Source: a virus
Lineage: Duplodnaviria; Heunggongvirae; Uroviricota; Caudoviricetes
Strand: one strand, 5' to 3'
Virus record (IMG/VR): IMGVR_UViG_2617270941_000003
Location: 1-23,946 of that record
Length of the DNA: 23,946 bases
The notes beneath the pieces are model-generated. The model made no database searches. It was not told the origin of the DNA and saw only the letters and a list, made by a program, of their open reading frames with translations. Of the stretch, positions 6,621-22,394 are shown piece after piece (position 1 is the stretch's first letter; every line of letters begins with the position of its first letter). Both the position numbers and the translations under genes were made by a program.

Positions 6621-6907
6621 AAATAACCTTCCTTTCTCCAGATTTCTTGTGTGCGAAAAACACCTTCTGCATGCATCAGGCGTAATTCTTCTTTGGTGTA
6701 ATCGCTGGTTTTTACCCGCCCGTCGATTAAATCGTGGCATGAGCTACAGGCAATCGCTGCCTGCATATCGTGTGGTTTTGTCGCTGTTCCGCACGTCCCC
6801 GCCAGCCTGTAATGCGCCAGCACAGAGGTTTCGGGATTGTGATTGCAGTAGCCAGGGATTCTGATCTGGCACATCTGGCCTTTAGCCGCTTTACGTAAAT
6901 TCACCAT
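6617..6907 (-). CDS. YbcO-like prophage protein (DUF1364 family, Cys-rich putative metal-binding nuclease)
   Basis: 96 aa (MVNLRKAAKGQMCQIRIPGYCNHNPETSVLAHYRLAGTCGTATKP...IACSSCHDLIDGR), closely resembling DLP12 YbcO as recalled. Confidence 0.7.
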   Translation of the reverse strand: MVNLRKAAKGQMCQIRIPGYCNHNPETSVLAHYRLAGTCGTATKPHDMQAAIACSSCHDLIDGRVKTSDYTKEELRLMHAEGVFRTQEIWRKEGYL

Positions 6908-7506
6908 TACGCAAACTCCAGTAGTTGTGCGGCCACATTTTCAACTTCCTCCTGAGAGGAGAATTTACGGAACAGAATCCAGTTCCACAGCACATTCAGA
7001 ACAGATTTATAAACCTGCTGAAACTCGGTTTCGTCCATATTCGCAAACGCGATGGATTTCGCCCTGCGCCCACGGCTACCGTCCGGATAAATATGCTCGG
7101 TGTAAAATCCGGCCTGAATGGTTACCCACTCGCGGAAAGCCTCAAACGACTTTAGCAATGCCGTATCCCGAGTTCTGCGTGTCGCAACTGTATTTAGATA
7201 TTGCTCTGCGGCATCACTCAGGGCTGGTGTGTGTTCCCGACCAACTGATTCGCACAAGTAATCCACGAAACCAGACAGCAGTTCTCGTTCGCGAGGTGTG
7301 ATCGCCCCACCGACCGGAGTCCAGTAATCGAATCCCAGTTGCAGGAGTTTGAAAAAACGCTTGTGGAATGCGTAGTTACGCACACGCTTAAAGTCTGCGT
7401 GTATCCACTCACCTATTTTGATTTGATGCAGAAAATCGCAACTCTCCGGCGTCGCCGGGAGAAGTAAACCAGAAGAGGTTTGTTTGACCAGTTGTATATG
7501 CGCCAT
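6907..7506 (-). CDS. nin-region phage protein, possibly DUF1367 family
   Basis: 199-aa ORF directly upstream of, and coupled to, the YbcO-like gene, an arrangement common in lambdoid nin regions. Family assignment is from memory and is tentative. Confidence 0.5.
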   Translation of the reverse strand: MAHIQLVKQTSSGLLLPATPESCDFLHQIKIGEWIHADFKRVRNYAFHKRFFKLLQLGFDYWTPVGGAITPRERELLSGFVDYLCESVGREHTPALSDAAEQYLNTVATRRTRDTALLKSFEAFREWVTIQAGFYTEHIYPDGSRGRRAKSIAFANMDETEFQQVYKSVLNVLWNWILFRKFSSQEEVENVAAQLLEFA

Positions 7507-7786
7507 TTCTCAATCTCTCGATGGCGCAGCGCAGCAGATGCCAGTTGTTCAGGCTGACGAATAAAGTATAAATAAACTGGCTATGGTGTAAAGCCCCACA
7601 TAGCATGAACAAACACTACATATCAAATAGCTGGTACAAGGATAGAAATACGACATTTATTATTAAAAACGATTAGATAAATTACATTTTAATGTTATGC
7701 AAAAGTTCTTTTTTATCATAACATTTCAATAAAAGCATTACAGATGCAATCATCCCGTCATCATCAATTATTTAAGGTGGTTAAAC

Positions 7787-7873
7787 ATGGAAAATAACAA
7801 GTTCGCACATCTCGCTCCTTTTTTATCCGTAATCCTTTTCGCTTGTTGTTTTATATGGGCATTATTTTTATAA
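7787..7873 (+). CDS. Candidate small hydrophobic protein (28 aa): MENNKFAHLAPFLSVILFACCFIWALFL
   Basis: ATG at 7787 with AAGGTGG 6 nt upstream, a single predicted TM helix and a Cys-Cys pair. Lies in an otherwise ORF-free AT-rich stretch. Confidence 0.4.
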   Translation: MENNKFAHLAPFLSVILFACCFIWALFL

Positions 7874-7947
7874 AGTAGCCGCATGATAAGTTGCTGGAAT
7901 CATATTTCCCACTCAAGTCATTAACATTTGATAAGATATATCTAAAA

Positions 7948-8006
7948 GGACACCTTTACATTATTTATGTGTATATAATTTATTTATATACACAGTAAAG
8001 GTATCC
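7948..8006. repeat. Nested imperfect palindrome in AT-rich non-coding DNA
   Basis: Outer arms GGACACCTTTAC (7948-7959) and GTAAAGGTATCC (7995-8006), 11 of 12 complementary. Inner arms TGTGTATATA (7968-7977) and TATATACACA (7985-7994), a perfect 10-bp inverted repeat with a 7-bp spacer. Confidence 0.5.
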
Positions 8007-8264
8007 TGGGAAAATATTTATCGTTAAAAAATACATCATAAATAATTAAGCTGAAATTTCAGAACACAACTAATACACACAATAAGGTTCAGTAACAATA
8101 ATCTATGTGGACTACATCGAGATTTTTTGATTAAACTTTAATAACTTATTCCTAACACACAGAATGCATAAACTAAAAGTAAAACAAATAGTTATACGAA
8201 AAACAACCATATTTATTATATCTTCTCCTCTAATCAACATATCAATTATGTGTTTCATAACAGC

Positions 8265-8312
8265 TTGACATAACCCTCAAAAACACGCATTTATAATGCA
8301 TGTTTTTGAGGG
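8265..8312 (+). promoter_or_regulatory. Putative promoter with an overlapping 17-bp inverted-repeat operator upstream of the YeaR-like gene
   Basis: Consensus TTGACA (8265-8270) and TATAAT (8292-8297), but with a long 21-bp spacer. Inverted repeat CCCTCAAAAACACGCAT (8274-8290) / ATGCATGTTTTTGAGGG (8296-8312), one mismatch, centred on the -10 element. Confidence 0.45.
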
Positions 8313-8319
8313 GGTGGTT

Positions 8320-8658
8320 ATGACACACAAGAGAATTCCTAAAGATTGGGTAATCAAACGCTCAACTCCGTTCTTCACAAAAGAGAACGTACCTTCAGCG
8401 TTATTAACACATCATAATACAGCAGCAGGTGTTTTTGGGCAGTTGTGCGTAATGGAAGGCACTGTAACATATTATGGTTTTACTGATGAGAATGCTACTG
8501 AACCGGAGATAAAAGTAGTCATTAATGCTGGCGCTTTTGCAACAAGCCCACCACAATACTGGCACCGTGTTGAACTAAGCGATGATGCTCAGTTTAATAT
8601 TAACTTTTGGGTCGCTCCAGACTTCTCGGGCGAAAAAGTCTATAGCACCAAAAAATAG
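8320..8658 (+). CDS. YeaR-like protein (DUF1971, the domain also found at the TehB N-terminus)
   Basis: 112 aa from the ATG at 8320 (GAGGGGG Shine-Dalgarno). Motifs RSTPFF, CVMEGTVTYYGFTDE, EPEIKVVINAGAFATSPPQYWHRVE and FNINFWVAPD parallel E. coli YeaR as I recall it. Confidence 0.65.
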   Translation: MTHKRIPKDWVIKRSTPFFTKENVPSALLTHHNTAAGVFGQLCVMEGTVTYYGFTDENATEPEIKVVINAGAFATSPPQYWHRVELSDDAQFNINFWVAPDFSGEKVYSTKK

Positions 8659-8687
8659 ATGATCATATTAAAAATGCTTTAACAGTC

Positions 8688-8725
8688 AGACCCGGCAGGG
8701 CTATCCCCGACGGGTCTCATTTTTG
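8688..8725 (+). terminator. Rho-independent terminator of the YeaR-like gene
   Basis: AGACCCG (8688-8694), loop, CGGGTCT (8711-8717), then CATTTTTGT. Confidence 0.6.
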
Positions 8726-9420
8726 TAAATATATTGGTTCTACATTGACAGGAGACTTCAACCATAAGAAGTAATCTGAATACTTGAGCAATAAATTTAC
8801 TTAAGATTAATGAGCGCACCTTGCCGGACAAAGATAAACCAAGGTAACACCTTTTTTCTAGCCAGTATGTAATCAATCAGAAAGCCGCTCCATAAGAACA
8901 ACAGCAAGACAATAAATTGCCATTACAGCCGCAATAGCCAGCGCACATTTGAGAACCAGCACGACAACCCCCTGTATTAGACGCACACCAGTCCTGATAA
9001 ATATGAGGCTGTCTCGTCAGTGATTCAATACAACTATTGGGTATAGTTTCTGTGATTTTATTCTGTAGAAATGGAACACAACAACCAGTCACCACCAGCA
9101 CTTCTTTAAATACGCCAAGTCCGACGCAAGCTAACCTTCTAGTCCGCTTTGAGCGAAAAGCGGACAGGAACATTCTGGTTAATAGATATCAATGCTAACA
9201 AAAAAGCTCCCGATGGAGATTTTGAAACCGCTTCCACATAATGAAATAAAAGGATTTATTTCTGATCATGCCCACACATTGACCACGTCGAAGTAAGTAG
9301 CTCCGCTTCGCGGAGTTACTTAAGATAATTTCTATGTAGTTCCATGCTATGATTTAATTTTCAAGTTACAAAATCTAAATCTACAAATGTCCATTTGGGT
9401 GTAAAATTACACAATCCTAT

Positions 9421-11746
<2,326 letters not shown>

Positions 11747-12047
11747 TTTAATTACCTTATATATCCAAACTCTTAATTTTCTCTTTTTTACCATAGGATT
11801 AATCCAAAATAAAGACCTTGTTGACTAAACCCTCATGTACAAAATGCACACTTACTCAAAAGGATCTGGAGGCAATCTCGACCTCCATGATTTAGTTCCT
11901 AGGGATAAGCAGAAATCTAGCACTGGATTAAAATTTAAAAATAATAATCAATAGGTTATAATGGTTTTTATTCGCATCCATGGGATCTGCTGCTGCCCGC
12001 ATGATGTTGGATGCGACGGCGCTGGCACGACCTCACCCGGTGAAACG

Positions 12048-12492
12048 ATGAAACGCGAAAGGGTTGTTCTTCGGGAAGGTGCAGTTGGACTTTCAATCGA
12101 TGACGTTGCAAAAGAGGCTGGCGTCAGTAAGGCAACGGTAATGTACGATCATAAGTCAAAGCAAGATTTGCTCAGCGATCTCATCAGTCGCCTTATGCCA
12201 GTAGAGGAGGAACGTGTTCAGCAAGCGATAGCGGAAAGTAATAATACCCCACATCCCGCACTCTATGGGCGAATTATTTCAGCCAGTAATGCTCTCAGTC
12301 ATACTGAGAGCAGTAGTGCTGGCGGTCAGCGAATCGTTAACTAACGATACGAATATCAGGGACACCATGCGTTCCTGCACAAACAAAGATTTGGATGAGA
12401 TAAAAAGAGGACCAAAACCAGACGTTGCCGTCCTGGTATATTTGGCGTTATCTGGTATCTACTGCCAAGAATTTTTTGATTTTTACAAATGA
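12048..12492 (+). pseudogene. TetR-family transcriptional regulator, apparently frameshifted, divergent from the three-gene operon
   Basis: The first ORF (frame of 11961..12344) carries a TetR-type helix-turn-helix (LSIDDVAKEAGVSKATVMYDHKSKQDLLSDLI) from an internal ATG at 12048. A second overlapping ORF (12265..12492) in a different frame could be the remaining C-terminal domain. Confidence 0.4.
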
Positions 12493-12765
12493 TCTCCTGG
12501 CGAGCGAGATAAAATTATCGAAGGCATTCGCTGTTTGTATGAATCATACCCTTACAAGTCTGAATAAATAATGTCTCCGGGAATGACATTTCATGTGCGA
12601 CTAATTCGCGATATTCCTATACGTAAAGGTCCGCTTTTGGCACAAAGTGGACAACCACGCTAGCTCTACCCTGTGCCACAAAATGTCAATTTGCATCTGA
12701 ACTAATGCACTTTAATCTCGTCACTTCAATAAATACCGAACATCCCCCTGATAAAACGACAATAT

Positions 12766-22018: not shown

Positions 22019-22213
22019 ATGCGGTATGAAAAAGTCAAACCATGTCTATTTTGTGGTTGTCCATCAGTAACGGTGAACGCCATTTCAGGATATTACCGAG
22101 CGAAGTGTAACGGATGCGAATCCCGAACCGGTTATGGTGGAAGTGAAAAAGAAGCACTCGAAAGATGGAATAAACGAACCACTGGAAATAATAATGGAGG
22201 TGTTCATGTATAA
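22019..22213 (+). CDS. ralR: Lar/RalR (restriction alleviation protein and type I toxin DNase)
   Basis: 64 aa from MRYEKVKPCLFCGCPSVTVNAISGYYRAKCNGCESRTGYGGSEKEALERWNKRTTGNNNGGVHV, near-identical to Rac Lar as recalled. Confidence 0.8.
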   Translation: MRYEKVKPCLFCGCPSVTVNAISGYYRAKCNGCESRTGYGGSEKEALERWNKRTTGNNNGGVHV

Positions 22214-22394
22214 AATTACCGCCACTATTGAAAAGGAAGGTGGCACTCCTACTAACTGGACAAGATATTCAAAATCTAAACTAACGAAATCAGAATGCGA
22301 AAAAATGCTCTCAGGTAAAAAAGAAGCAGGCGTTTCCAGAGAGCAGAAAGTAAAACTGATAAATTTTAATTGCGAGAAACTTCAGTCCTCGTGA
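22206..22394 (+). CDS. ydaC: YdaC-like small protein
   Basis: 62 aa from MYKITATIEKEGGTPTNWTRYSK..., with GGAGGTG Shine-Dalgarno. Its start overlaps the lar stop (ATGTATAA). An upstream in-frame ATG at 22194 is also possible. Confidence 0.6.
   Translation: MYKITATIEKEGGTPTNWTRYSKSKLTKSECEKMLSGKKEAGVSREQKVKLINFNCEKLQSS

Follow-up and report, generated by a model that had tools for sequence, protein, structure and literature searches.

Does a small gene carried by prophages of Escherichia coli answer to the nitric oxide (NO)-sensing repressor of its host? The question is raised by a cassette at positions 8265-8725 of IMG/VR virus record IMGVR_UViG_2617270941_000003, which encodes a protein of the DUF1971 family. 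We analysed positions 1 to 23,946 of that record; this whole stretch of 23,946 nucleotides (nt), here called the window, finds its match in a remnant of a Rac-like prophage located at ttcA. A preliminary description, made from the sequence alone, had proposed that the gene is a stress-responsive moron, a relative of chromosomal yeaR with a palindromic operator resembling a box for the repressor NsrR. Scoring against a matrix of known NsrR sites and comparison with orthologous promoters support this proposal in silico, and we consider it likely that the cassette is an NsrR-repressed, NO-inducible moron encoding an STM1808-type DUF1971 protein. Repression of a DUF1971 gene by NsrR is already known from Salmonella and from comparative genomics; what is new is its carriage by prophages in E. 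coli. In the literature searched, nothing relevant was found on a prophage DUF1971 gene or on an NsrR-controlled prophage moron.

Promoter and predicted NsrR box

The features of the cassette are the following, with coordinates in the window.

8265..8270, + strand: -35 hexamer TTGACA, read directly and aligned with orthologous promoters
8274..8312, no strand assigned: 39-bp palindrome around the NsrR box, with arms at 8274-8291 and 8295-8312
8282..8304, no strand assigned: predicted NsrR operator (11-1-11), AACACGCATTTATAATGCATGTT, from the matrix, with its centre 27 nt before the ATG
8288..8293, + strand: putative homologous -10 CATTTA, with a 17-nt spacer, at box positions 7-12, assigned from the orthologues
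8292..8297, + strand: consensus TATAAT, the -10 of the preliminary description, 21 nt from TTGACA, read directly
8308..8314, + strand: Shine-Dalgarno sequence GAGGGGG, 5 nt before the ATG, read directly
8320..8658, + strand: coding sequence of the DUF1971 protein (112 amino acids), with the ATG at 8320 and the stop at 8658
8688..8724, + strand: terminator-like hairpin (8688-8717) and T5 (8720-8724), with a folding free energy of -17.1 kcal/mol

The gene had been described as having its own promoter hexamers, Shine-Dalgarno sequence and terminator, and direct reading finds each of them at these positions. An automated promoter and terminator scan called neither signal, because its limits (a spacer of 16-18 nt and a loop of at most 8 nt) are exceeded by the 21-nt spacing and by a loop of more than 8 nt; both signals were settled by direct reading, folding and homology.

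The likeness to an NsrR box was scored with a symmetrised position-weight matrix built from 27 E. coli 11-1-11 sites (Table 4 of Mehta et al. 2015, PMC5320621). The sequence AACACGCATTTATAATGCATGTT scored 20.8 bits, above background (p 4.8e-8 on a uniform background, ln P -16.8), and was the best match in the window, ranking 9th against the 27 known sites, whose leave-one-out scores range from 8.5 to 30.9 bits with a median of 18.6. A matrix made from chromatin immunoprecipitation-positive or validated sites alone gave 19.9 bits (p 9e-8). On the local AT-rich background p was 2.5e-6, and the score was reached by 0.2% of Markov-simulated AT-rich spacers of 810 nt. The published cut-off is ln P -14.28, derived from the authors' own matrix and not from the one built here, and the validated yeaR operator has an ln P of -17.05, near the value of the prophage box (both PMC5320621). 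The box reads AACACGCATTT-A-TAATGCATGTT, which resembles the 11-1-11 consensus AAGATGCATTT-N-AAATGCATCTT, and shares 19 of its 23 positions with the ytfE site AAGATGCATTTAAAATGCATCTT. The half-site spacing from which the likeness had first been drawn, ATGCAT-N5-ATGCAT, agrees with the published consensus gATGyAT-N5-ATrCATc (PMC1274295).

Independent and decisive support came from phylogenetic footprinting. Chromosomal orthologues with 75-82% identity occur in many Enterobacteriaceae and also in Vibrionaceae and Shewanella; the 250 nt upstream of each gene were scanned, and none of the sites found there had entered the matrix. Nearly all of the ~55 enterobacterial orthologues carried a near-consensus NsrR box that scored 20-30 bits and lay at an equivalent place in the promoter, with its centre 27-39 nt ahead of the ATG (Kluyvera, Leclercia, Enterobacter pasteurii, Pseudescherichia, Buttiauxella, Citrobacter, Klebsiella, Raoultella, Yokenella and Phytobacter, as well as Salmonella arizonae and diarizonae). 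The sole low scorer, Leclercia adecarboxylata, reached 12 bits in register, but visibly retains a box from which 1 nt has been deleted. These observations accord with a 2005 prediction that NsrR regulates a tehB homologue throughout the enterobacteria and in Photobacterium profundum (PMC1274295).

The ~55 boxed promoters share one geometry, in which a -35 hexamer (TTGACG, TTGCCT, TTTACA or TTGACA) is followed by exactly 11 nt and then by the box, so that box positions 7-12 (TATATT, CATATT or TATTTT) always lie 17 nt from the -35. By this geometry the homologous -10 of the prophage promoter would be CATTTA and not TATAAT, which begins 4 nt further downstream; at 21 nt, TATAAT is probably not the ancestral -10, and the doubt already expressed over the 21-bp spacing was justified. 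Both candidate -10 hexamers lie under the predicted box.

In the model that we infer from these comparisons, the binding of NsrR, the point at which transcription starts, the induction by NO and the role of the protein are all predictions. The host [4Fe-4S] repressor NsrR would occupy the 11-1-11 box (8282-8304) in dimeric form, and since this box lies over the -10 region, bound NsrR is proposed to block RNA polymerase. Nitric oxide would nitrosylate the cluster, upon which NsrR would leave and the gene would be transcribed from about 8300-8305, with a leader of 15-20 nt, to an end at the hairpin 8688-8724. Control like that of yeaR, as had been suggested, would hold for NsrR only, as neither a TACYYMT heptamer for NarL, on either strand, nor a site for FNR was found in 8150-8320.

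Several points weigh against this model. First, the C at box position 5 (ACGCAT for ATGCAT or GTGCAT) costs the window allele 4.8 bits, so that its operator may be weaker than those of other alleles. Second, the sites in the matrix were partly chosen with a similar matrix, which makes the score circular for 9 of the 27. Third, CATTTA is a poor -10 that lacks the final T, and a spacing of 21 nt is unusual for TATAAT, which leaves promoter strength and start site uncertain. Fourth, Vibrionaceae orthologues mostly have no box directly upstream; the exceptions are two Photobacterium loci, in agreement with Rodionov's P. profundum prediction. Lastly, the palindrome is 8 bp longer than the NsrR box on each side, of which the NsrR model gives no account.

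The encoded protein and the origin of the cassette

The DUF1971 profile of Pfam (PF09313) spans the whole protein (profile positions 1-80 of 80, E 2.3e-26), with a score of 92 bits against a cut-off of 23. The protein matched PDB 3DL3 ('tellurite resistance protein B', 119 amino acids) with E 3.5e-59, on the strength of which we take its fold as known, and matched E. coli YeaR (PDB 3BB6) more weakly (E 1.6e-24). The earlier view of the gene as a yeaR paralogue was right as to the DUF1971 family, but the relation is distant, with 41% identity to K-12 YeaR, and the protein is instead of the STM1808 / 3DL3 type. Orthology to yeaR itself was ruled out by this identity, by the terminator after the gene and by the absence of a DUF1869 (yoaG) gene.

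A TehB homologue was matched with E 5e-11. RefSeq product names for the protein (e.g. NZ_CP104123.1, WP_000149055.1) switch between 'DUF1971 domain-containing protein' and 'TehB family protein'; the latter label is misleading, because the NCBIfam TehB model gives 49 bits against a cut-off of 303 and the prophage protein has no methyltransferase domain. PADLOC, searched for an anti-phage role of the DUF1971 protein, gave no match. The prophage protein has three histidines, H31, H32 and H82, that are conserved without exception in 80 of 80 orthologues. Karlinsey and colleagues are said to have found H32 and H82 of STM1808 necessary for zinc binding and NO resistance.

The link to STM1808 runs through Salmonella arizonae, whose orthologue is 77% identical to the prophage protein and lies directly after nhaB-dsbB. 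As dsbB is STM1807 (PMC4143323), and as the 90%-identity cluster of the S. arizonae orthologue includes subsp. enterica serovars, the family of the prophage gene would be that of STM1808. By sequence, then, the gene is assigned as an orthologue of the STM1808 / 3DL3 subfamily by way of the S. arizonae gene. A later paper lists STM1808 under 'NsrR regulon' and credits a virulence role to Karlinsey et al. 2012 (PMC7527575). The role suggested for the prophage protein would follow by analogy from Karlinsey et al. 2012 on STM1808 (Mol Microbiol 85:1179, cited in PMC7527575). The Salmonella orthologue reportedly helps the bacterium to resist nitrosative stress and to cause systemic infection; lysogens in the inflamed gut or urinary tract could therefore gain in NO tolerance from the prophage copy.

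The closest relatives of the cassette are found in Kluyvera, Pantoea and Enterobacter. The prophage and Kluyvera genes differ by 52 synonymous and 20 non-synonymous codons, that is, mostly synonymously, and the prophage promoter can be aligned base for base with the Kluyvera-type promoter. From this alignment, gene, promoter and operator were most likely captured together from such an enterobacterial chromosome. Within E. coli, the cassette is present in 466 of 5426 complete genomes (~9%), and it is also carried by 3 sequenced phages.

A second regulator may have been left behind. About 20 nt upstream of the -35, the chromosomal orthologues of Kluyvera, Leclercia and Enterobacter have a near-consensus Fur box, GATAATGAGATTCATTATC, which agrees with GATAATGATAATCATTATC at 17 of 19 positions and has the counterpart TGAGAATAATTCTCA in Photobacterium damselae. 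The prophage holds a degenerate remnant with a 7-nt deletion, CAATTATGTGTTTCATAAC (8241-8259), which suggests that dual Fur/NsrR control was lost on capture by the prophage.

The extended palindrome and its alleles

The operator had been described as a 17-bp inverted repeat, ACGCAT-TTATA-ATGCAT. This repeat is present at 8285-8301, but it is only the centre of the 39-bp palindrome, whose arms of 18 nt are complementary at 17 of 18 positions around a 3-nt loop. The Shine-Dalgarno sequence sits in the right arm. As RNA, the palindrome would fold with -23 to -26 kcal/mol (z = -5 against shuffles), and Rfam gave no known RNA family at 7500-9400. A weaker outer repeat, TGACATAACC / GGTTATGACA (8266-8275 / 8316-8325), covers the -35 and the start codon.

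Six promoter alleles were read. They are listed with the score of the NsrR box and with the number of genomes, counted as megablast matches to each 53-mer.

Window allele, exact 53-mer: 20.8 bits, 13 genomes (of 5426)
Window box with 1-2 changes in the Shine-Dalgarno arm (two alleles read): 20.8 bits, 248 genomes (matches 95-99% identical to the window 53-mer)
EBJ003 type, AAGGTGCATTTATAATGCATGTT: 26.7 bits, 104 genomes
E10 type: 17.6 bits, 12 genomes
30COLEC type, AAGATGCATTTTTAATGCATGTT: 27.8 bits

Two of the 248 genomes and a Shigella flexneri locus were read, and the window box was found in all three. Both the -35 TTGACA and the right half-site of the box are unchanged across the six alleles. 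In place of TATAAT, the E10 allele has CATAAT and the 30COLEC allele TTTAAT, and the Shine-Dalgarno sequence of other alleles is GGAGG or GATGAGG. Downstream of the gene, the EBJ003 allele has a related hairpin followed by a T-rich tail. In strain CPww7 an IS3-family element lies 9 bp upstream of the -35 (~8256), with promoter, operator and gene intact. The natural operator series of 17.6, 20.8, 26.7 and 27.8 bits offers a ready test of NsrR affinity against induction threshold.

The long arms may be a mutational by-product, functionless in themselves, in which template switching at a quasi-palindrome during replication has copied one arm from the other and so made the palindrome more perfect and longer around an NsrR box that is symmetric by nature; we regard this as a nearly even call. 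Polymorphism is concentrated in the palindrome: 14 of the 46 sites in 8271-8316 (30%) vary, compared with 5-7% of those in the adjoining spacer and in the gene (Fisher p 1.5e-6), and the 30COLEC and window alleles differ at 6 positions in this interval and at 1 in the 336-nt gene. Between the window allele and the outgroup-like EBJ003 allele, the changes are clustered and have raised symmetry, in multi-nucleotide steps such as GGT to CAC and ATGGGAGG to TTGAGGGG, and clustered, symmetry-raising changes are the expected signature of template switching at a quasi-palindrome. The variable positions mirror each other (8275-8279 and 8307-8312), the outgroup promoters are closer to the less symmetric EBJ003 allele, and the exact window 53-mer is found in just 13 genomes.

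Extensions of the palindrome around the operator also recur across lineages with unrelated sequences and separate origins. Citrobacter has the NsrR box inside a perfect palindrome of 43-45 bp, with an extra 10 bp per side that is also found in Yokenella; Raoultella planticola has an independent 7-bp outer arm, GACAGAT / ATCTGTC; and the prophage has its own. Against a mere by-product speaks the persistence of the Citrobacter extension in at least 11 species. In the outer arms of Citrobacter and Yokenella, 6 of 10 pairs have changed on both sides with 92% still paired, a value reached by 0 of 500 shuffles. This complementarity fits selection for the stem and arm-to-arm conversion equally well, and sequence alone cannot separate process from selection.

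If the arms are functional, the embedding palindrome could be the sign of another layer of control in addition to NsrR, through a DNA cruciform that takes the -10 away or through an RNA stem that keeps read-through transcripts silent, a possibility that we consider unlikely. With the RNA-stem form of such a layer, only NO-induced starts would be translated.

In another version, which appears to us quite doubtful, the palindrome would act as an RNA hairpin, alongside its role as operator or in place of it, and would mask the Shine-Dalgarno sequence in transcripts arriving from upstream. Transcripts from the gene's own promoter would start inside the palindrome, without its left arm, and would thus be translated, much as fold-back inhibition shields the IS10 transposase from outside transcription. 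The location of the Shine-Dalgarno sequence in the right arm and the stability of the stem are consistent with this, as is the presence, in the promoter spacer of every prophage allele, of an anti-Shine-Dalgarno sequence (CCCTC, CCTCC or CTCCT) opposite GAGGG, GGAGG or AGGAG. One clean compensatory pair, A-T to C-G, separates the window and 30COLEC alleles, and in these two the predicted unpaired fraction of the Shine-Dalgarno sequence is 0% in long and 35-37% in short transcripts. However, this difference in accessibility is missing or reversed in the other four alleles, and covariation across the six is that of shuffles, with 1 compensatory pair (reached by 233 of 500 shuffles) and 83% against 82% of positions paired. 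Moreover, the nearest chromosomal promoters, of the Kluyvera type, have no such extension, that of Citrobacter stops short of the Shine-Dalgarno sequence, and an upstream promoter on the + strand is not established. Given the non-significant covariation and the inconsistent accessibility, we do not claim an RNA-level function for the prophage alleles.

It is highly improbable that the palindrome is the operator of another regulator (a phage repressor, or an Rrf2 protein such as IscR) or that the gene is constitutive from TATAAT: the palindrome does exceed the length of an NsrR site, TATAAT is a perfect -10 and the left half-site of the window allele is the weakest part of the NsrR match, but the outer arms vary between alleles and lineages, which is not how a recognition sequence under conservation would behave. 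Conservation between the prophage and the chromosomes of Klebsiella and Salmonella, which encode NsrR but not this phage, is confined to the 23-bp NsrR core, and the IscR type-2 pattern, judged by eye, is not matched.

Prophage setting and known systems

Two groups of genes flank the cassette in the window.

6907-7506, - strand: DUF1367/NinB, then DUF1364 and DUF1133 (nin genes)
9421-11746, - strand: three-gene operon encoding SIR2, ITPase and adenosine-deaminase-like proteins

The cassette lies on the + strand, opposite in direction to the phage early genes, and the flanking nin genes and SIR2 operon on the - strand. Its neighbour toward ninB is constant, the cassette always standing beside DUF1367 (NinB), and its right-hand neighbour varies among prophages between the SIR2 operon, queH, hok/gef and kilA-N. 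Judged by its sequence and surroundings, the cassette has the hallmarks of a moron: promoter and terminator signals that belong to it alone, an orientation opposed to the phage operons, a patchy distribution and variable neighbours.

Other features of the region were noted. The ~750 bp between ninB and the cassette (7507-8264) are 70% A+T, with a longest open reading frame of 48 amino acids; this stretch accompanies the cassette in prophages, is missing from Kluyvera-type chromosomal loci, and contains a perfect inverted repeat with 11-nt arms, TGTGTATATAA / TTATATACACA (7968-7994). The operon at 9421-11746 stands where the prophage replication genes were and has replaced them. Its SIR2 protein has a ThsA-like SIR2 domain (PADLOC E 9e-32), its adenosine-deaminase-like amidohydrolase matched the adenosine-deaminase part of CARF_ADA (E 3e-36), and its Ham1/ITPase-like pyrophosphatase had no PADLOC match; a TetR-family gene is divergent from the operon, near 12048-12494. 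The combination of a deaminase, which could make inosine triphosphate (ITP), with an ITPase and SIR2 looks like a candidate defence or counter-defence island. The second-best NsrR match in the window, AAGATCCATTTTAATTACCTTAT (11738-11760, 17.4 bits, p 5.7e-7), has one good half-site and lies over the ribosome-binding site and start codon (ATG, 11746-11744, - strand) of the gene for the amidohydrolase; the match could be fortuitous in AT-rich sequence, or this could be a second NsrR target. Elsewhere in the window, the only families that Rfam identified were IS009 (229 bits) and RalA, the antitoxin small RNA of the Rac RalR/RalA system (225 bits), at 160-358 and 22212-22390, both on the - strand.

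Among known systems, Salmonella STM1808 shares the DUF1971 subfamily, an NsrR box at a fixed distance from the -35 and the conserved H32 and H82. The prophage gene differs in sitting on a lambdoid prophage: E. coli is without a chromosomal STM1808-type gene, and ~9% of its complete genomes gain one on Rac-like/lambdoid prophages. Its box is 27 nt before the ATG, compared with 39 nt in Salmonella, and the window allele has a degenerate left half-site and an extended palindrome. The gain over existing knowledge is incremental.

The E. coli yeaR-yoaG operon likewise has a DUF1971 gene and a nitrosative-stress context, and its NsrR 11-1-11 box is about as strong as that of the prophage (ln P -17.05, compared with -16.8). 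It combines the NsrR operator with activation by NarL, according to Lin et al. 2007 as cited in PMC5320621. In contrast, the prophage gene is 41% identical, has no yoaG downstream and has no NarL heptamers. The yeaR operator is reported by Lin and colleagues to be centred at -32, whereas the predicted prophage operator covers the -10. At the level of the protein, PDB 3DL3 aligns over residues 1-111, and TehB of the Haemophilus type (PDB 3M70), with its N-terminal DUF1971 domain, has the methyltransferase domain that the prophage protein lacks.

The closest parallel in genetic organisation is with lambda bor and lom and with the HK97-type morons, which are likewise single genes with their own promoter and terminator, set against the flanking operon, patchy in distribution and variable in their neighbours. 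What distinguishes the DUF1971 cassette from these is a promoter that seems to be linked to one specific stress sensor of the host, NsrR, and to have been imported with the gene. If NsrR controls the gene, the cassette would show clearly how a passenger gene of a phage can join a stress regulon of its host as soon as it arrives.

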